Source of the DNA: Parcubacteria group bacterium
GTDB lineage: Bacteria > Patescibacteriota > Minisyncoccia > Phycocordibacterales > WO2-35-19
DNA: 64,000 nucleotides
Direction: 5' to 3'
NCBI GenBank assembly: GCA_012514175.1
Contig: JAAZAU010000012.1
Span: 110,897-174,896, forward strand
Of the stretch, positions 5,292 through 53,969 are shown piece by piece. The number at the start of each line of letters is the position of its first letter. Positions within the stretch are counted from its first letter, which is position 1. The position numbers and the translations under genes were made by a program. The notes below the pieces were generated by a model that did no database searches, was not told the origin of the DNA, and saw only the letters and a list, made by a program, of their open reading frames with translations.

Positions 5292-6275
5292 ATGAACGAC
5301 AATTTTGATAAAGTTATAGTTTTGCCTTCAAAACCAAAAGTGGTATTAGATGAAGGCAACAAGGGAATTTTTGAGATAGATGGATTCTATCCTGGATTCG
5401 GCTACACCGTAGGCAACAGCTTAAGACGCATTATCTTGTCTTCTTTGCCTGGCGCCGCCGTAACTTCAATGAAAATAAATGGTGTAGATCATGAGTTTTC
5501 TTCTATCAAAGGAGTAAAAGAAGACGTAGTGATGATAATGCTCAATCTCAAAAAACTCAGGATAAGAATGATTACAGACGAACCACAAACTCTTACTCTG
5601 AAAGCTAAAGGAGTTAAAGAAGTAACCGCAGGGGATATTGAAGTCCCTGGTCAAATAGAAATAATGAACCCAGAACTTTTAATTGCCACTTTAACTGATA
5701 AAGATTCGGAATTAGAAATGGAAATGACGGTAGAAAAAGGTTTAGGTTTTATTAGTCGCGATCTGTCTAACAGAAACAAGGTTGATATTGGCACCATAGT
5801 ATTAGACGCCAACTTCACCCCAATCAGAAGAGTTAGTTACGAAGTAGAAAATATGCGAGTCGGCGATCGCACTGACTTTAACCGACTTCGTATCTCCTTA
5901 GAAACCGATGGCAGTATCTCTCCTAAAGAATCACTTGAAAAATCTATCAACATTATGATAGAACAATTGAAGGCCATTACTGGTTTTGAGGATAAAGAAG
6001 AAATTGTAAATGAATCAGTTTCTGATAGCGAAACCGCCGAGGAAGAAAATGAGAGCAATGCCCAAAAAATGGATCCAGAATTTCTTAAAACCAGAATAGA
6101 AAATTTAGAGCTCTCAACTAGAACTATGAATGCTCTTTCTAGCGCCAACATTAGAACCATTGGTGGTTTAGCTAGAAAAAAAGAAAAAGACATTCTTGAA
6201 ATAGAAGGCTTGGGCGCTAAAGGAGTTGCTGAAATCAAAAGAGTTTTAGCTGAACACGGTATAACATTAAAGTAA
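5292..6275 (+). CDS. rpoA: DNA-directed RNA polymerase subunit alpha
   Basis: 327 aa. N-terminal dimerisation/assembly domain and C-terminal aCTD (LELSTRTMNALSSANIRTIGGL). Located between rpsD and rplQ. Confidence 0.95.
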   Translation: MNDNFDKVIVLPSKPKVVLDEGNKGIFEIDGFYPGFGYTVGNSLRRIILSSLPGAAVTSMKINGVDHEFSSIKGVKEDVVMIMLNLKKLRIRMITDEPQTLTLKAKGVKEVTAGDIEVPGQIEIMNPELLIATLTDKDSELEMEMTVEKGLGFISRDLSNRNKVDIGTIVLDANFTPIRRVSYEVENMRVGDRTDFNRLRISLETDGSISPKESLEKSINIMIEQLKAITGFEDKEEIVNESVSDSETAEEENESNAQKMDPEFLKTRIENLELSTRTMNALSSANIRTIGGLARKKEKDILEIEGLGAKGVAEIKRVLAEHGITLK

Positions 6276-18479: not shown

Positions 18480-20065
18480 ATATATTCGGAATAACAAGCT
18501 TGATGATATTCTTTGCAGGAATTGGCTTTGGTCTTTTTTTGTATTCATCTGACAGAACTTCAAAACTTAATAAATCTTGGTTTATAGTTTCAATTTTTAC
18601 AGCCTTATGGGGGTTATCACTTTTCGGGGTCACTTCCGCGGACACAGCAAACATTGCTATGAAATGGCAATGTTTGCTTGATGTGTCCGCTACTTTTATT
18701 CCAGTCACATATTTTTATTTCGTTTGTCAACTATTAAAAATAAAAAGAAAAGCCTGCAATAGATGTATTTTAATTTTGGGAATTGTAATAGCAATATTTT
18801 CCTTAACTCCTTATCACAAAACAGAAATTACTACAAGATATGGTTTTTTTTGGGTTGATCCGGGGGAATATTACTTCTTGTTTTCATTTTTCTTTGGAAT
18901 TGTAACTCTCACATCACTTTTCTTGTTAATACAAGGATACTTCAAAAACAGAAAAGAACCCCTGTTTAGAGCTCAAATAAGAAACACATTAATAGCGGGC
19001 ATAATAGGTTTTGGAGGAGGTATCACCAATTTCTTTCCACAACATATAGATATATACCCATATGGTAATTATTTTATTTTACTTTATGTGTTTTTCATGA
19101 GTTATGGAGTATTGAAATACAAATTACTAAACACAAAAATAATATCTGCTCAATTGTTAGCGGGAGCAATTGTTTTAATATTTTTATTTGATCTATTAAG
19201 ATTTAATTACAATTTATATGATTGGATTGTAAAATTTATATTATTTATACTTGTTTTGTTATTTAGTGTTTTCTTAATAAGAAGCGTATTTAAAGAAATA
19301 GAGCAACGTGAACATATAAAAAACCTCGCTAAAGATTTACAGGAAGCAAATGAAAAATTGAAAGAATTGGATCAAATGAAATCAGAATTTATGTCCTTAG
19401 CCACACACCAAATTAGAGCGCCACTGACCGCTATCCGAGGTTATTCTTCAATGCTTCTAGAAGGGGATTTTGGAGCTTTGCCAGCAAAGGCTGCCGATTC
19501 TATAGAAGTCATAACCAAATCCAGTCAAAACCTGATTGATATCGTGAACGATTTCCTCAACATTTCCAGAATAGAGCAAGGGAGAATGGTTTATGAAAAA
19601 AGTGTTTTTGATTTAGTGAAATTGGTAAAAGAAGTAGCGGATGAGTTGAGACCTAACATTAAAGACGCTGGGTTAGATTTGAAAATCAATATAATACCAA
19701 ACAATCTTTTTATGGAAGTGAACGGTGATAGAAACAAATTGAGACAAGTTTTCAGCAATCTTTTAGACAACGCCACCAAATACACACTGAAAGGTAGTAT
19801 TGAAATTTCTATTACAGAAGAAAATTCTAAAGCAAAGATAGAAGTAAAAGACACCGGTGTTGGCATAGACCCAGCAGAAACCGAAAAACTTTTCGGAAAA
19901 TTTAACAGAGCCAAGGACGCAAACAAAACCAATGTTATTGGCACTGGAATCGGTCTTTATCTTGCTAAAAAAATAGTGGAAGCTCACGATGGTCGTATCC
20001 AGGTTTTTTCAGAAGGTTTAGATCATGGCACCACTTTTACCATTGAATTACCTTTGGAAAAATAA
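18476..20065 (+). CDS. sensor histidine kinase with multi-TM N-terminal sensor domain (orphan, no adjacent response regulator)
   Basis: 529 aa with about 7 predicted TM helices, then a coiled coil, H-box HQIRAPLTAIRGY, N-box and G-boxes (GTGIGLYLAKKIVEAHDGRI). Confidence 0.9.
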   Translation: MNIFGITSLMIFFAGIGFGLFLYSSDRTSKLNKSWFIVSIFTALWGLSLFGVTSADTANIAMKWQCLLDVSATFIPVTYFYFVCQLLKIKRKACNRCILILGIVIAIFSLTPYHKTEITTRYGFFWVDPGEYYFLFSFFFGIVTLTSLFLLIQGYFKNRKEPLFRAQIRNTLIAGIIGFGGGITNFFPQHIDIYPYGNYFILLYVFFMSYGVLKYKLLNTKIISAQLLAGAIVLIFLFDLLRFNYNLYDWIVKFILFILVLLFSVFLIRSVFKEIEQREHIKNLAKDLQEANEKLKELDQMKSEFMSLATHQIRAPLTAIRGYSSMLLEGDFGALPAKAADSIEVITKSSQNLIDIVNDFLNISRIEQGRMVYEKSVFDLVKLVKEVADELRPNIKDAGLDLKINIIPNNLFMEVNGDRNKLRQVFSNLLDNATKYTLKGSIEISITEENSKAKIEVKDTGVGIDPAETEKLFGKFNRAKDANKTNVIGTGIGLYLAKKIVEAHDGRIQVFSEGLDHGTTFTIELPLEK

Positions 20066-22213: not shown

Positions 22214-22271
22214 TCACATTCGGAAATTTAGGTCATGGCACCACTTTTACCATTGAATTACCTTTGGAAAA
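22214..22271 (+). pseudogene. remnant copy of the histidine-kinase 3' end (direct repeat of 20005..20061)
   Basis: 39 nt (22233..22271) are identical to 20023..20061. Flanking bases are also similar. The fragment encodes ..GHGTTFTIELPLE.. in frame, like the kinase C-terminus (DHGTTFTIELPLEK*). Confidence 0.7.
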
Positions 22272-28539: not shown

Positions 28540-29061
28540 TTATTCGCAGGGATTTTCTTCTTGGTCAGAACCGTAAAAACCACCACTAAGCAACGCGTTG
28601 AAATTTTGGTAGGCTTTGTTTCGGTTAGGATCACCTTTGAGCATTTCCACTTCCAAAAGCGATGATTCTTCATACATACCCTCTATGCTACCAGTTCTCT
28701 CAAACAAACAATAATTACCTTTACTGATAGCAGCTCTACCCGCTTGAGCAGCACTGTCATCTCCAGCATTGCCAGCGTAAACACCGGTTTGCAAAGCTTT
28801 GGCTTTTTGTCTTAGCGCAGACTGCATAACCGCGCTGTCTGGGTATCGGTCTACAATATATTTATCAAGATCATCCCAAACTCCGTTAGCGTCATCGTCA
28901 TAACCAAAACCATCGTAAGTGCTCTGCGAGGGATTGTTGGTGCCACCAGTATTGGTCGTTTTGGTGTTAGTGGCTTTTTTAGATCCACCAAAACCACAAC
29001 CCAATAAAACAATGCTCAACAAAAGCACGATCGGCAAACAAATAAGCAACGGTTTTTTCAT
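28540..29061 (-). CDS. small secreted lipoprotein, paralog A of a tandem pair
   Basis: 173 aa with lipobox LLGC. Shares YDGFGYDDDANGVWDDLDKYIVDRYPD...LQTGVYAG..DDSAAQAGRAAISK..EESSLLEVEMLKGDPNRNKAYQNFNALLSGGFYGSDQ-ENPCE with the next gene. Stretches of >100 nt are near-identical at DNA level. Confidence 0.6.
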   Translation of the reverse strand: MKKPLLICLPIVLLLSIVLLGCGFGGSKKATNTKTTNTGGTNNPSQSTYDGFGYDDDANGVWDDLDKYIVDRYPDSAVMQSALRQKAKALQTGVYAGNAGDDSAAQAGRAAISKGNYCLFERTGSIEGMYEESSLLEVEMLKGDPNRNKAYQNFNALLSGGFYGSDQEENPCE

Positions 29062-29137: not shown

Positions 29138-29641
29138 TTAAAATGCAGGTGTGAGAGGTTCGCAGGGATTTTCTTTCTGGTCAGAGCCGTAAAAACCACC
29201 ACTAAGCAACGCGTTGAAATTTTGGTAGGCTTTGTTTCGGTTAGGATCACCTTTGAGCATTTCCACTTCCAAAAGCGATGATTCTTCATCAAACCTCCTG
29301 ATGTCACCATCAGTTCTTTCAAGTAAACAATAAAGGGATTTGCTTATGGCAGCTCTACCCGCTTGAGCAGCACTGTCATCTCTAGCACTACCAGCGTAAA
29401 CACCAGTTTGCAAAGCTTTAGCCATTTGCTTCAACGTGGCCTGCATAACCGCGTTGTCTGGGTATCGGTCTACAATATATTTATCAAGATCATCCCAAAC
29501 TCCGTTAGCGTCATCGTCATAACCAAAACCATCGTAAGTGCCAAGTTGAGAAGAATTTTTAGACCCATCAAAATTATAAATCAAAAAAATAACACCTAGT
29601 AAAAACAAAATTGATAAACAAACGAACACAATTTTTTTCAT
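29138..29641 (-). CDS. small secreted/membrane-anchored protein, paralog B of the tandem pair
   Basis: 167 aa with signal-anchor N-terminus. Shares long near-identical nucleotide blocks with 28540..29061. Confidence 0.6.
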   Translation of the reverse strand: MKKIVFVCLSILFLLGVIFLIYNFDGSKNSSQLGTYDGFGYDDDANGVWDDLDKYIVDRYPDNAVMQATLKQMAKALQTGVYAGSARDDSAAQAGRAAISKSLYCLLERTDGDIRRFDEESSLLEVEMLKGDPNRNKAYQNFNALLSGGFYGSDQKENPCEPLTPAF

Positions 29642-30751: not shown

Positions 30752-32152
30752 ATGCAAAGAACTTATATAAAAGATTTGAAAGAAAAAATAGGGGAGGAAG
30801 TGATTATTAAAGGTTGGGTTAATGTTCGGCGCGATCAAGGAAAAATGGTTTTCGTTGATATGCGCGATATGACCGGACTTGTGCAATGTGTCGTTTTGCC
30901 AAAAAGCGAAGCTATTGAGGTTGCCAAGGAAATAAGAACCGAATGGGTTTTATCCATAAAAGGAAAGGTAAACGAACGCCCAGAAAAGAATAAAAATGAC
31001 AAGGTTCAAAACGGCGATATTGAAATTGAGATTTTAAACATAGAAATTTTAAATAAAGCTGAAGTTTTACCTTTTGAAATTTCGTCGGATACCAAAGATA
31101 TAAACGAAGATACTCGTCTTAAATATCGTTATCTAGATTTGCGTAGCGAAAGAATGCAAAAAAATATCCGAGCTAGAGGCAAACTCATAAAATACGTAAG
31201 AGATTTTATGGATAGTGAAGGTTTTGTAGAAGTAGAAACTCCAATACTTACTAAATCTACACCAGAAGGTTCGCGCGACTATGTCGTGCCTTCCAGACTT
31301 TACCACGGCAAATTTTATGCTCTACCACAATCACCTCAACAATACAAACAACTTTTAATGACTGCCGGTATGGAAAAATATTTCCAAATTGCGAGATGTA
31401 TGCGCGATGAAGATTCTCGCGGAGACCGACAACCCGAGTTTACACAAATGGACTTAGAAATGAGTTTTGTTGAAAGAGAAGACGTGATGGACATCAACGA
31501 AAGATGCCTCATTGGACTAATCCAAAAACTTTATCCTGAAAAGAAAATACAGCAGATACCTTTTCCAAGACTTTCTTTTGCTGAAGCTATGGAAAAATAT
31601 GGTAGCGACAAACCTGATCTCCGCGAAGACAAAAACGATCAAAATCTTTTAGCTTTTTGTTGGGTAATTGATTTTCCATTTTTTGAAAAAACCGATGAAG
31701 GTGGTTGGACCTTCACTCATAATCCATTTTCTAGACCAAAACCCGAATTTATGGAAGACCTTATGAAAAAAGAGAACATTGAAAAAATCCTAACGACTCA
31801 ATACGACATTGCGTTAAATGGTATGGAAATTGGCGGTGGCAGTATTAGAAACCACGAACCAGAAGCTTTGCAAAAAGTTTTTGAAATTATGGGACACGAA
31901 ACCGAAAAAATAAAAGAAAACTTTGGTCATATGCTATCGGCCTTTTCTTTAGGCACACCCCCTCATGGTGGTATCGCTTGGGGAATAGACAGATTGGTAA
32001 TGATACTTCAAAACGAACCAAACATCCGCGAAGTTATTCCTTTTGCAAAAACCGGGGAAGGTAAGGACCCAATGATGGAATCACCAACCACGATCACAGA
32101 AACTCAACTCCGCGAACTTCATATAAAAATTAGAGACACTAACCCAAAATAA
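30752..32152 (+). CDS. aspS: aspartate--tRNA ligase (compact archaeal/eukaryal-like type)
   Basis: 466 aa with N-terminal OB anticodon-binding domain and class II motifs (FQIARCMRDED..., GGGSIR). Confidence 0.9.
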   Translation: MQRTYIKDLKEKIGEEVIIKGWVNVRRDQGKMVFVDMRDMTGLVQCVVLPKSEAIEVAKEIRTEWVLSIKGKVNERPEKNKNDKVQNGDIEIEILNIEILNKAEVLPFEISSDTKDINEDTRLKYRYLDLRSERMQKNIRARGKLIKYVRDFMDSEGFVEVETPILTKSTPEGSRDYVVPSRLYHGKFYALPQSPQQYKQLLMTAGMEKYFQIARCMRDEDSRGDRQPEFTQMDLEMSFVEREDVMDINERCLIGLIQKLYPEKKIQQIPFPRLSFAEAMEKYGSDKPDLREDKNDQNLLAFCWVIDFPFFEKTDEGGWTFTHNPFSRPKPEFMEDLMKKENIEKILTTQYDIALNGMEIGGGSIRNHEPEALQKVFEIMGHETEKIKENFGHMLSAFSLGTPPHGGIAWGIDRLVMILQNEPNIREVIPFAKTGEGKDPMMESPTTITETQLRELHIKIRDTNPK

Positions 32153-32160
32153 AGATAAAA

Positions 32161-32186
32161 CCCCCAGACGCGAATGCGTCTGGGGG
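32161..32186 (+). terminator. bidirectional terminator after aspS
   Basis: CCCCCAGACGC-GAAT-GCGTCTGGGGG with A/T runs on both sides. Confidence 0.75.
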
Positions 32187-32451
32187 CGGACAACGAGAAT
32201 ACGGAATTGTCAAAAAAGAGAACGAGGACGTCGTGATGCCGAAGGCACGATTTGTTTGGACACAGGCTCCAAACTGCCAACGACAACAGCCGACACCCCG
32301 ATCTCGTTGTTGGTTTACGGTCTACATTTTATTATAGACCAATATACAACTTTTTACCACTTAACATATAAGTATTTATGTGTTATAATTTTATTCACTC
32401 TTATTAAAACAAAGAGAAAAAGAATATTGGAAATATGTTAAAATAAGCCCT

Positions 32452-33183
32452 ATGCACGATGATTTTAAGGTAAAAATAGGGGAAATAGAAGGGCCGTTAG
32501 AGCTTATTTTGGACCTAATAGAAAAGAGGAAACTTCACATAAGTGACGTTTCTCTTTCCCAAGTGGCAGACGAGTTCATTGAATACATAAAATCTTTTGA
32601 GGAATTTCCAATACAAGATTCGGCTGATTTTATTTTGGTTGCTTCAACGCTTTTATTGATTAAGTCCAAATCGCTTTTACCAAATCTTTCACTTACCCCG
32701 GAAGAACAGGACAATATAGAAGATTTAGAAAATAGATTAGCAACCTATAAAAAATACAAGGAGCTTTCTGTAAATGTCGCTCAAAGATTTGGGAATTTTT
32801 TATATTTTGCTAGAGAAAAGAGAAATATCAATATCGTGTTTGCTCCGGCAAACGATATCAATCTTTCTACGTTAAAAAACGCTCTGGTAGAAGTTTTAAA
32901 AAATGTGCCTCAAAAAACTGAAAAACTTCCAAAAGTGGCTATCACCAAAATTATAAGTTTGGAAGAGATGATAAACCGTTTATCAGACAGAATAAAAACC
33001 AGTCTTCGCACTAGTTTTAAAGATTTTTCAGGTATGGGCAAAGCGCAAAAAGTGGATGTGATAGTGAGTTTTTTAGCTATGTTAGAATTAGTAAAACAAG
33101 GCGTGGTAAAAGCCGACCAAAGTAACAATTTTGAAGATATTCAAATAGAAGGCGAAAACGCTGGGGTGCCAAGTTATTATTAA
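32452..33183 (+). CDS. scpA: segregation and condensation protein A
   Basis: 243 aa kleisin ScpA pattern (GPLELILDLIEKRKLHISDVSLSQVADEF...). Confidence 0.85.
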   Translation: MHDDFKVKIGEIEGPLELILDLIEKRKLHISDVSLSQVADEFIEYIKSFEEFPIQDSADFILVASTLLLIKSKSLLPNLSLTPEEQDNIEDLENRLATYKKYKELSVNVAQRFGNFLYFAREKRNINIVFAPANDINLSTLKNALVEVLKNVPQKTEKLPKVAITKIISLEEMINRLSDRIKTSLRTSFKDFSGMGKAQKVDVIVSFLAMLELVKQGVVKADQSNNFEDIQIEGENAGVPSYY

Positions 33184-51446: not shown

Positions 51447-52849
51447 CAGAGATTAAACTTCAAAACACATTAACTGGCAAAAAAGAAATATTTAAACCCC
51501 TTAAAGAAAAAGAGGTTAGTTTTTATCAATGCGGACCAACTGTTTATTGGACCCAACATATTGGTAATTTGCGAGCTATGACAATGGCCGACATTATTAA
51601 TCGCACTTTTCAATATTTAGATTATAAAGTTAAGTTTGTTCGCAATTATACCGACGTTGGTCACCTTACCTCAGATAACGATGAAGGTGAAGACAAAATG
51701 TCTAAAGGCGCCGAAAAAGAAGGTCTTTCACCAAAAGAAATTGCCGACAAATACATTGCTATTTTTGAAAAAGATAATTCTGCTTTAAACAATTTAGAAC
51801 CCACAATTAAACCTAAGGCCACTGAAAACATAAATGAGGTTATTGAAATGGTAAAGATAATGTTAGAAAAAGGTTATGCTTATCAAACTGAGCTTGCAAT
51901 TTATTTTGATATCACCAAAGCCTCAGAATACAACTGTCTTTCCCATCAAGATTTAGAAAAACAAAAACAAGGTGCTGGTGCAGGAGAAGTTAGTGATAAC
52001 GATAAAAAAAATCCAGCAGATTTTGCTGTTTGGTTTTTCAAAAAAGGTAAACACATCAACGCTTTACAAGTTTGGGATTCGCCTTGGGGTGTCGGCTTTC
52101 CTGGTTGGCATATTGAGTGTTCGGCTTTCATTAGAAAATTTTTAGGTCCAACTATTGATATTCATATGGGTGGTATAGAACACATCTCTATTCATCACAC
52201 TAACGAAATCGCCCAAAGCGAAGCGGTCAACAACGCCCCCCTTGCAAACTACTGGCTCCATAACGAACACTTGCTTGTTGATAATAAAAAAATGTCCAAG
52301 TCTGAAGGAACCAGTTATAGTTTAGAAGAAATAAAAACTAAAGGTTTTGATCCACTAGCCCTGCGTTATCTTTTTCTTAGCGCTCATTATCGCTCCAAAC
52401 AAAATTTCACCTGGGAAGCACTCTCCTCTGCTCAAAATGGTTTGCATAATATTTATAGACAGATTAAAGAATTAAAAAATGTCTCCCCTGCTTTGCCAGA
52501 TGAATCTTTTAAAGAAGATTTTATTAAAACCATCACTGATGATTTTAATATTCCTAAAGCTCTTGCTGTCATTCAAGAAGTTTTGAAATCCGATTTGGTA
52601 GCAGATAAAAAATTAGCCACTTTGCTTGATTTTGACAAAGTTTTGGGATTAAAATTGGCTGAAGCAATTTCTAAAAAAGAAACAGATACAGAAATCCCTG
52701 AATACGTTTTAGAAATGAAAAAAGAACGCGACGATGCCCGCGCTCAAAAAGATTGGCAAAAATCTGACGAACTCCGCAAAGAAATAGAGCGTGAAGGTTA
52801 TATTTTAGAAGATTCAAACACAGGGAGCACTATAAGAAAAACTAACTAA
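51437..52849 (+). CDS. cysS: cysteine--tRNA ligase
   Basis: 470 aa with HIGH (CGPTVYWTQHIGNLR), KMSKS and zinc-binding Cys/His residues. Confidence 0.93.
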   Translation: MDMTEIKLQNTLTGKKEIFKPLKEKEVSFYQCGPTVYWTQHIGNLRAMTMADIINRTFQYLDYKVKFVRNYTDVGHLTSDNDEGEDKMSKGAEKEGLSPKEIADKYIAIFEKDNSALNNLEPTIKPKATENINEVIEMVKIMLEKGYAYQTELAIYFDITKASEYNCLSHQDLEKQKQGAGAGEVSDNDKKNPADFAVWFFKKGKHINALQVWDSPWGVGFPGWHIECSAFIRKFLGPTIDIHMGGIEHISIHHTNEIAQSEAVNNAPLANYWLHNEHLLVDNKKMSKSEGTSYSLEEIKTKGFDPLALRYLFLSAHYRSKQNFTWEALSSAQNGLHNIYRQIKELKNVSPALPDESFKEDFIKTITDDFNIPKALAVIQEVLKSDLVADKKLATLLDFDKVLGLKLAEAISKKETDTEIPEYVLEMKKERDDARAQKDWQKSDELRKEIEREGYILEDSNTGSTIRKTN

Positions 52850-53614: not shown

Positions 53615-53831
53615 TTTACGGCTCATCTTCCCATAAAATGTTGGAATCGCCGTTTCCATATGGATCTACAGGAGTTACGCCACTGACACGAACTTCAAAA
53701 TGGAGATGGTATCCAACCGATACTCCGACGGGTGCTTGGTTACCAACCGTGGCAACCACATCACCTTGCGTCACAGTCGAGTATCCTTGAAAAAGGATGT
53801 CTGATTCAACTGCGCTACTGTTAAACCCACT
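53615..53831 (-). pseudogene. C-terminal remnant of an M23 (LytM) peptidase gene
   Basis: Minus-strand frame encodes ...QGDVVATVGNQAPVGVSVGYHLHFEVRVSGVTPVDPYGNGDSNILWEDEP*, matching the HLH..V-containing C-terminus of M23 peptidases. An in-frame stop lies upstream and there is no start codon. G+C is higher than surroundings. Confidence 0.6.
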
Positions 53832-53898
53832 CTAGAAATACCCCCCAAAGAGCTTAAACGCATTTTAGACAAAGAATTATTCTTATTTGGAGAAATTG

Positions 53899-53969
53899 TG
53901 CGAGATGCGAGAATCGAACTCGCGTCTGATGCTTGGGAAGCACCCATTTTGCCACTAAACTAATCTCGC
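53899..53969 (-). tRNA. tRNA-Gly (anticodon CCC)
   Basis: Minus-strand sequence GCGAGAT-TA-GTTT-AGTGGCA-AAAT-G-GGTGC-TTCCCAA-GCATC-AGAC-GCGAG-TTCGATT-CTCGC-ATCTCGC-A folds into a canonical cloverleaf with 7-bp acceptor, TTCGATT T-loop and anticodon loop U-CCC-A. No encoded CCA. Confidence 0.85.

Follow-up and report, generated by a model that had tools for sequence, protein, structure and literature searches.

A candidate small RNA gene, divergent from the scpAB operon, in a clade of Parcubacteria

Introduction

Trans-encoded small RNAs (sRNAs) of bacteria are transcribed from their own promoters and end at Rho-independent terminators; examples are the pyrimidine- and C-rich RNAs of the RsaE/RoxS type in low-G+C bacteria. 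Here we analyze a G+C-rich element that lies between the aspartate--tRNA ligase gene aspS and the segregation and condensation gene scpA of a Parcubacteria group bacterium, in a stretch of 64,000 nucleotides (nt) that corresponds to positions 110,897-174,896 of contig JAAZAU010000012.1 (hereafter the window; all coordinates count from its start). We give slightly better than an even chance to the reading that the element is a stand-alone sRNA gene of about 170 nt on the minus strand (from 32324 to about 32153), a candidate proposed from sequence analysis. It would resemble the RsaE/RoxS-type RNAs in standing alone between genes, in a length of 100-250 nt, and in its signals, a putative sigma-70-like promoter and an intrinsic terminator. 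Further common traits are a G+C content above that of an AT-rich genome, a pyrimidine-rich segment, a narrow phylogenetic range, and a fast sequence turnover. It differs from them in having no sequence or covariance match to any Rfam sRNA family and in its predicted body, a single long closed rod where they show C-rich loops on several short hairpins. Moreover, its host barely uses Shine-Dalgarno sites, so that the usual anti-Shine-Dalgarno mechanism is unlikely.

The universal RNAs of similar size also bear comparison. 5S rRNA shares with the element a closed, G+C-rich core of about 120 nt, but its usual, if not obligatory, context is an rRNA operon, whereas the element is flanked by aspS and scpA. 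The small bacterial signal recognition particle (SRP) RNA (4.5S; RF00169) is likewise a hairpin with no branches, about 100-120 nt long, whose ends form a terminal helix. It is, however, capped by a GNAR tetraloop with the conserved loops of domain IV, whereas the apical loop of the element has 7 nt, GCCUGUG (plus strand CACAGGC), and it is conserved across bacteria, whereas the sequence of the element is not conserved across relatives. 6S RNA (ssrS; RF00013 and related families) is also a rod closed by pairing of the 5' and 3' ends, with low sequence conservation but a conserved shape, and its size agrees with that of the element within a factor of about 1.5. The two differ in the internal loop, which is a two-sided mimic of the open promoter in 6S RNA and one-sided in the predicted fold of the element (about 2 versus about 24 nt), and in the absence of the element from the aspS-scpA locus of close relatives.

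Architecture of the element and its relatives

The comparison set consisted of the aspS-scpA junctions of loci L001-L140; a first round of blastn and nhmmer searches, which covered 80 of them, yielded no match. The architecture seen in the window recurs in five lineages (L098; L129/L130; L135; L138; L139), with spacers of 283-348 nt. In all six, the module lies on the minus strand and consists of a -35 box, a spacing of 16-17 nt, a -10 box, a core of 95-198 nt, a G+C-rich hairpin, and a U-run. The ScpA proteins of the five element-carrying relatives are 74-78% identical to that of the window, which lies on a long branch of the ScpA tree. Over all 140 loci, blastn and nhmmer matches were confined to same-species copies and to the L129/L130-L139 pair. 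When local alignments between spacers were compared with shuffles, the sole significant similarity (window, L098, and L129) proved to be the promoter region, not the RNA body. The spacer of L129 contains an N-run flanked by a duplicated 55-nt segment (1597-1696), a scaffolding artefact; that of L130 is uninterrupted.

Within the species, the spacer is identical in eight independent contigs from different samples, and a ninth differs by a single nucleotide polymorphism (SNP), 32246 C>T (position 603 of L090). This sole variant among the nine contigs would turn a C-G pair of the predicted minus-strand rod into C-A and would replace Ala by Val in a 33-codon plus-strand open reading frame (ORF). 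It is uninformative, because it comes from one short, low-coverage Logan contig.

The aspS-scpA junction is hypervariable across Parcubacteria and in many genomes comprises only 2-27 nt. Other occupants of the slot are a PG_binding_1 gene (Pfam), ORFs that read as HIT-like and NUDIX-like, and unrelated short promoter-hairpin-terminator units. For instance, L035 carries on the plus strand, at about 5440-5580, the promoter TTGACT-17-TATCTT, a hairpin of about 90 nt closed by UCGGGGUG/CACCCCGA, and a terminator, and L002 carries on the minus strand, at about 5430-5600, a CU-rich unit with its own terminator. Neither unit matches R1, a covariance model built from L130 and L139, which with default filters recovers its own sequences only. 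When the six cores are aligned with MAFFT, the structure is not preserved.

Transcription signals

The candidate RNA and the signals around it in the window are as follows.

32153..32324, minus strand: candidate small RNA of about 170 nt, its extent taken from the promoter and terminator positions
32331..32336, minus strand: -10 box TATAAT of a putative promoter; the TATA.T columns are invariant in the six-locus alignment
32354..32359, minus strand: weak -35 box TGGTAA (3 of 6 matches), 17 nt upstream of the -10 box and within a conserved AAGTKG block (AAGT.G invariant)
32150..32187, minus strand: intrinsic terminator; its stem of 12 bp, nine of them G-C, spans 32160-32187, and TTTATCTTTA comes next on the minus strand
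32361..32389, plus strand: divergent promoter P1, TTAACA-17-TATAAT with a TG extension (11 of 12 matches in the scan)
32436..32444, plus strand: probable promoter P2 of a leaderless scpA transcript, with the extended -10 box TGtTAAAAT 7 nt ahead of the ATG at 32452 (from the sequence and relatives)

Transcription would start about 7 nt after the TATAAT box, from a promoter placed back-to-back with the plus-strand promoter that faces scpAB, and would end at the G+C-rich hairpin beside the aspS stop codon, within its U-tract. In the promoter alignment of the six loci, AAGT.G and TATA.T are invariant and the spacing is 16-17 nt; in the five relatives the conserved minus-strand promoter is of the form AAGTTG-N-TATACT. 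The -10 box is TATACT, TATATT, or TATAAT, and the relatives have TTGCAG, TTGCAT, TTGTTA, or TTGTAA as the -35 box, at a spacing of 16 nt. A strict promoter scan detects a minus-strand promoter at this place in L135, L139, and L130 but misses it in the window and in L098 and L138. The conserved block also serves as a plus-strand -35 box (TTAACA-17-TGTGTTATAAT in the window), so that the two -35 boxes, 32354-32359 on the minus strand and 32361-32366 on the plus strand, stand back-to-back with one base between them. This is the most conserved part of the spacer in the six lineages. Closer to scpA, a -10-like box is found 6-7 nt before the start codon in all six loci, with the TG extension in five.

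The hairpin beside aspS had been described as a bidirectional terminator that would also stop a minus-strand transcript. The second half of this description agrees with the U-tract on the minus strand and with the terminator scan, which reports a site on that strand only. The first half does not hold in the canonical sense, since only the minus strand has a T-run behind the stem; on the plus strand the next letters are CGGACAACGAG, with no T-run. In the five relatives, the terminator was read in the minus orientation. Two of these terminators, those of L135 and L138, are also called by the strict scan, which finds no plus-strand terminator at this position in any locus.

Predicted structure

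The preliminary description of this DNA, made from the sequence alone, had pointed to a conspicuously G+C-rich spacer in an AT-rich genome and to several inverted repeats within it, and each of the motifs it quoted was re-located exactly. In 120-nt windows, the G+C content of the spacer neighborhood peaks at 0.54, at the 99.9th percentile of the 64 kb (mean 0.362, standard deviation 0.064). A perfect 9-bp inverted repeat pairs ACAACGAGA (32190-32198) with TCTCGTTGT (32302-32310) over a span of 121 nt; about 0.04 such repeats within some 150 nt are estimated to be expected by chance. The hairpin CGTG-AT-GCC-GAA-GGC-ACG occupies 32232-32249. The GGTCTA...TAGACC repeat, which had been listed with the RNA helices, does occupy 32319-32340, but it is probably promoter DNA outside the RNA, because its loop carries the minus-strand -10 box TATAAT. 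The proposed unit of about 120 nt closed by the 9-bp helix corresponds to the core only, the likely transcript being the longer unit of about 170 nt.

In the minimum free energy (MFE) and centroid structures, the sequence folds on either strand into an unbranched rod. The parts of the minus-strand fold are as follows.

32302..32310, minus strand: closing helix, 5' strand (RNA ACAACGAGA), paired with 32190-32198 in the centroid structure
32190..32198, minus strand: closing helix, 3' strand (RNA UCUCGUUGU), 2 nt before the terminator stem (centroid structure)
32223..32300, minus strand: inner rod, an imperfect long hairpin (RNA CGGGGUGUCGG...CGACGUCCUCG; MFE and centroid structures)
32232-32249, minus strand: sub-hairpin CGUGCC-UUC-GGCAUCACG in the inner rod (MFE and centroid structures)
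32255..32273, minus strand: apical hairpin UUUGGA-GCCUGUG-UCCAAA (MFE and centroid structures)
32199..32222, minus strand: pyrimidine-rich tract (RNA UUCUCUUUUUUGACAAUUCCGUAU), a one-sided internal loop between the inner rod and the closing helix (centroid structure)

Taken together, the RNA would be one long, imperfect, unbranched hairpin, directly followed by the terminator hairpin. Its base would be a closing helix of 9 bp (ACAACGAGA/UCUCGUUGU), its inner rod would end in an apical loop of 7 nt, and its 3' side would carry the pyrimidine-rich tract of 24 nt. In the centroid structure the internal loop is asymmetric, with about 2 nt in its 5' strand as against about 24 nt in its 3' strand; the MFE structure has no central bubble.

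Folding energies were compared with those of dinucleotide shuffles (n = 200) for the core at 32188-32322, from which the terminator hairpin had been removed. The minus strand folds better than its shuffles (z = -3.03, with 2 of 200 shuffles as good; in a repeat run z = -2.75, 1 of 200), whereas the plus strand does not (z = -0.80, 43 of 200; in the repeat run z = -1.04, 35 of 200). The larger scores of -5.95 and, for the minus strand, -7.99 include the terminator stem. Over the five cores tested, minus-strand scores range from -2.75 to -6.1, and the minus strand is the more stable one in four; the exception is L129, which folds slightly better on the plus strand.

By eye, all six members have a 3' segment rich in pyrimidines, of about 85 nt in L139. 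The tract is predicted to be unpaired in L135 (22 nt, UCCUCUUCCCUCUUGUCCUUUU), and in L129 and L139 a long 3' stretch remains single-stranded in the MFE structure. An apical hairpin similar to that of the window is seen in L098 (AUCGGA-GCCGUUG-UCCGAU), a likeness noted by eye and devoid of statistical support.

Predicted pairing under sequence turnover

The pairing of the RNA ends was examined with no alignment, using the first and last 28 nt of each core as set by the promoter and terminator positions only. Duplexes formed by an end with its own partner have a mean energy of -19.9 kcal/mol, compared with -12.1 kcal/mol for cross-lineage combinations. The true assignment ranks first of 720 permutations with six members and first of 120 with five. 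This test covers six sequences, too few for a formal covariation test, and the self-complementarity that it measures is strand-neutral.

The closing helix was also aligned by hand in five sequences, in the register G-Y-G-R-G-A-G. In this alignment 85% of the cells are paired, and five of the eight pairs change on both sides (U-A to C-G, A-U to G-C). For four of five measures, only 1-10 of 500 shuffles reach the observed values, and every slid register is much worse. In L130 and L139, the only pair that can be aligned by sequence, 22 predicted pairs are shared and none is broken, with two compensatory and two one-sided changes; by eye, their apical hairpins occupy the same place and have completely different sequences.

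Known RNA families

At gathering thresholds, the only Rfam match in the whole 64 kb is a tRNA (53899-53969). The covariance-model search (cmscan) of Rfam that had been suggested as a check was made permissively for positions 32050-32500 (451 nt, E up to 10), and returned no 5S rRNA, SRP RNA, 6S RNA, RNase P RNA, or tmRNA, only weak terminator-driven matches to VrrA and NsiR1, both on the minus strand. Four related elements gave no relevant Rfam match at E up to 5, and ARAGORN found no tRNA or tmRNA in the element. 5S rRNA was rejected, there being no RF00001 match, no three-way junction on either strand, and no rRNA in the 64 kb. SRP RNA was rejected on the lack of Rfam matches in the window element and the four related loci and of a GNAR-capped domain IV; the GAAG/GAA loop at 32241-32244, read by eye, is not flanked by the conserved SRP loop motifs. 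6S RNA was rejected likewise, with no Rfam match and no two-sided central bubble. The preliminary description had considered 5S, SRP, 6S, or a novel RNA; the first three fail on the Rfam result and on a fold that is an unbranched rod unlike any of them, while its broader proposal of a structured non-coding RNA stands, with the novel RNA as what is left after testing.

Coding potential, repeats, and possible targets

Six-frame translation of the six spacers shows no ORF conserved in any frame. Pfam has no match for the 61-codon ORF 32256-32441 or for the 55-codon minus-strand ORF 32119-32286; the former had been called implausible, in agreement with its lack of a Pfam match and of conservation in relatives. 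The possibility that the segment is a decayed protein gene had also been raised; it behaves as a structured non-coding RNA, neither coding nor decayed coding.

A miniature inverted-repeat transposable element or another repeat was rejected, as the element has no second copy in the 64 kb and no terminal duplications. An inverted match of the element to 52086-52115 (30 nt, 80% complementary) was also set aside, since it lies inside a coding ORF of 470 amino acids (aa) and is at chance level. It includes a 12-nt exact match, GGGGTGTCGGCT, between the minus strand of the element (32288-32299) and 52086-52097, in the WGVGFPGWHIEC region of an ORF read as a putative cysS; a match of this length is about what chance would give in 64 kb.

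As regards translation signals, GGAG occurs within 20 nt upstream of 3 of 58 crudely called gene starts of the window, and many starts are preceded, 6-8 nt before the ATG, by a -10 box similar to TATAAT or TAAAAT. Because such boxes adjoin the start codons, that of scpA in the six lineages included, the organism appears, from its sequence, to be largely leaderless; it also appears almost free of Shine-Dalgarno sites. In a comparison of cognate with non-cognate duplexes between the candidate RNA and the scpA leader, co-evolution was not significant (rank 41 of 720), and duplexfold gave unrealistic long-range loops.

Neighboring genes and other features of the window

The genes that flank the element are both on the plus strand.

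30752..32152, plus strand: aspS, aspartate--tRNA ligase (AspRS; 466 aa, bacterial type without the GAD insertion), upstream flank; Pfam tRNA-synt_2 and OB anticodon-binding domain, NCBIfam
32452..33183, plus strand: scpA, segregation and condensation protein A, downstream flank, followed by scpB; Pfam SMC_ScpA and SMC_ScpB

The identity of aspS, as given in the preliminary description, is borne out by both Pfam and NCBIfam (aspartate--tRNA ligase equivalog, 646 bits against a cut-off of 443). The protein matches the 590-position bacterial aspS model in two stretches, and therefore lacks the insertion (GAD) domain of about 120 aa; in close relatives AspRS has 447-477 aa, with one called at 432 aa. 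Among species-representative genomes, AspRS relatives place the window in the Patescibacteria/Parcubacteria, with a best identity of 76%, and the ScpA relatives are annotated as Zambryskibacteria or Paceibacterota.

Several further features were seen elsewhere in the window. A tandem duplication (28543-28922 and 29159-29541, about 0.6 kb apart; 131 nt at 98% and 231 nt at 89% identity) spans two adjacent minus-strand ORFs of 173 and 167 aa. A 45-nt direct repeat of 98% identity (20017-20061 and 22227-22271, 2.2 kb apart) probably marks a conserved motif in paralogous genes. Finally, a G+C-rich stretch of 280 nt on the minus strand (53616-53898), directly downstream of the tRNA gene and with no Rfam match, reads as the C-terminal fragment of an M23-type peptidase (...GYHLHFEVRVSG...) split into short ORFs, and may be a pseudogene.

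Discussion

The evidence for a novel structured RNA on the minus strand is purely computational and consistent, and supports this reading to a moderate degree. Several observations weigh against it. The -35 box of the window matches in only three of six positions (TGGTAA), and the strict scan passes over this promoter. Other lineages among the closest ScpA relatives (74-78%) have no element, with spacers of 18-45 nt between aspS and scpA; the element is therefore dispensable. In the 140 loci, blastn and nhmmer find no match to the window element beyond its own species. With filters off, R1 scores it at 5 bits only, over part of its length, and L135 at 13.8 bits (E = 0.82), the top of its set but not significant. 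As the window element can be aligned by neither sequence nor covariance model, its homology with the five relatives would rest on position, promoter block, orientation, terminator, and the register and architecture of the closing helix. The alignment of that helix was made by hand with the structure in mind, and the excess of G-U pairs on the minus strand is modest (20 versus 12 in five members). For two members, L098 and L138, the predicted fold does not leave the pyrimidine tract accessible. Lastly, an anti-Shine-Dalgarno role as the main mechanism was rejected and is unlikely: GGAG precedes only 3 of 58 starts, many genes look leaderless, and the tract is not consistently unpaired.

Among the alternatives, we consider it rather unlikely that the segment is a non-functional, quasi-palindromic spacer in a hypervariable slot of fast turnover, its hairpin produced by mutation (a template-switch inverted duplication or a decayed mobile element) with no selection on an RNA. 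Such an origin would suit a slot that varies in length and content, a primary sequence almost wholly unconserved, close relatives devoid of the element, and a self-complementarity that in itself is strand-neutral. It would leave aside the correctly spaced -35 and -10 boxes and the same-strand terminator U-tract that are kept in six diverged lineages, the end-to-end pairing that is kept while the paired sequences change, and the presence of a single copy in 64 kb, with no terminal duplications and with its other match at chance level. A cis-acting module, whose product has no role elsewhere, would put the same minus-strand signals to a different use: convergent transcription and the hairpin would insulate aspS from scpAB, or the transcript would be antisense to aspS read-through. 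The lack of a canonical plus-strand terminator after aspS favors this possibility, as does the presence of the scpA promoters P1 and P2 where the module is found; in relatives with no module the aspS-scpA spacer is only 18 nt, so that co-transcription is likely there. However, a simple terminator would be enough for insulation, which needs no structured core of 95-198 nt with a kept end pairing. We therefore regard a purely cis role, as an insulator or as antisense to aspS read-through, as a live alternative, though of low probability.

The remaining explanations seem weaker still. A plus-strand element, that is, a structured 3' untranslated region of aspS or an upstream leader of scpA, would sit on the coding strand between two plus-strand genes; its hairpin, having no plus-strand T-run, might let transcription run on, and L129 does fold slightly better on that strand. 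But the plus-strand fold of the window core is no better than that of shuffles, both scpA promoters lie downstream of the element, and it is the opposite strand that carries the conserved -10 box and the U-tracts of the terminators, so that we think this quite improbable. RNAs of Patescibacteria can be divergent, and a closed core of about 120 nt with a rod-like shape is reminiscent of SRP and 6S RNA; even so, a divergent copy of 5S, SRP, or 6S RNA is already largely refuted, and we give it a very small chance, as Rfam matches are lacking in the window (E up to 10) and in four relatives (E up to 5), together with the three-way junction, the GNAR-capped domain IV, and the two-sided bubble, and as the element is missing from the slot in close relatives and has no sequence conservation between lineages whose ScpA proteins are 74-78% identical. 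A small protein, encoded by the 33-codon plus-strand ORF 32236-32337 or by the 61-codon ORF 32256-32441, has a similarly slight probability. The ATG of the former lies 7 nt downstream of the Shine-Dalgarno-like GAGGA, and in L135 and L136 the corresponding region was given an ORF of 80 aa by gene callers, but the genome hardly uses Shine-Dalgarno sites, no ORF, the 33-codon one included, is conserved in any frame in the six lineages, and the two longer local ORFs (32256-32441 and 32119-32286) have no family matches, which largely refutes this explanation too.

If the element is indeed a stand-alone sRNA gene, our best guess is a trans-acting regulatory or protein-binding role, in which the pyrimidine-rich 3' segment would be the surface that meets an RNA-binding protein or a purine-rich RNA. 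The candidate RNA might be expressed together with scpAB, or in competition with it, by way of the divergent promoter region that the two share. The family would be fast-evolving and restricted to one Zambryskibacteria-like clade of Parcubacteria, always residing in the aspS-scpA slot; its promoter, terminator, orientation, and the pairing of its ends would be kept, its primary sequence hardly at all. More tentatively, and as a possibility that we consider doubtful rather than probable, these elements may form an undescribed structured RNA family of a Parcubacteria clade (Candidate Phyla Radiation, CPR), in which a closed rod with a variable pyrimidine-rich platform lies back-to-back with the condensin operon scpAB. 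In a largely leaderless host with no Shine-Dalgarno sites, such an RNA would need a mechanism other than classic anti-Shine-Dalgarno pairing; for instance, it would sequester a pyrimidine-binding protein or pair with purine-rich coding or leader sequences.

The stakes are modest, as the element is dispensable in close relatives, narrow in range, and of putative function only. From its sequence features, it may best be filed as a lineage-restricted sRNA candidate that matches no Rfam family. The locus also illustrates that G+C-rich islands in AT-rich genomes can flag non-coding RNA genes even where no database model matches. The Patescibacteria/CPR have tiny genomes and are uncultivated, and full-text literature searches on sRNAs, regulatory RNAs, or 6S RNA in this group found nothing relevant; as far as these searches go, the RNA, if real, would be among the first regulatory RNAs proposed for Patescibacteria. 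A conserved promoter-rod-terminator module divergent from scpAB would provide a concrete sRNA candidate and a seed for an RNA family model.

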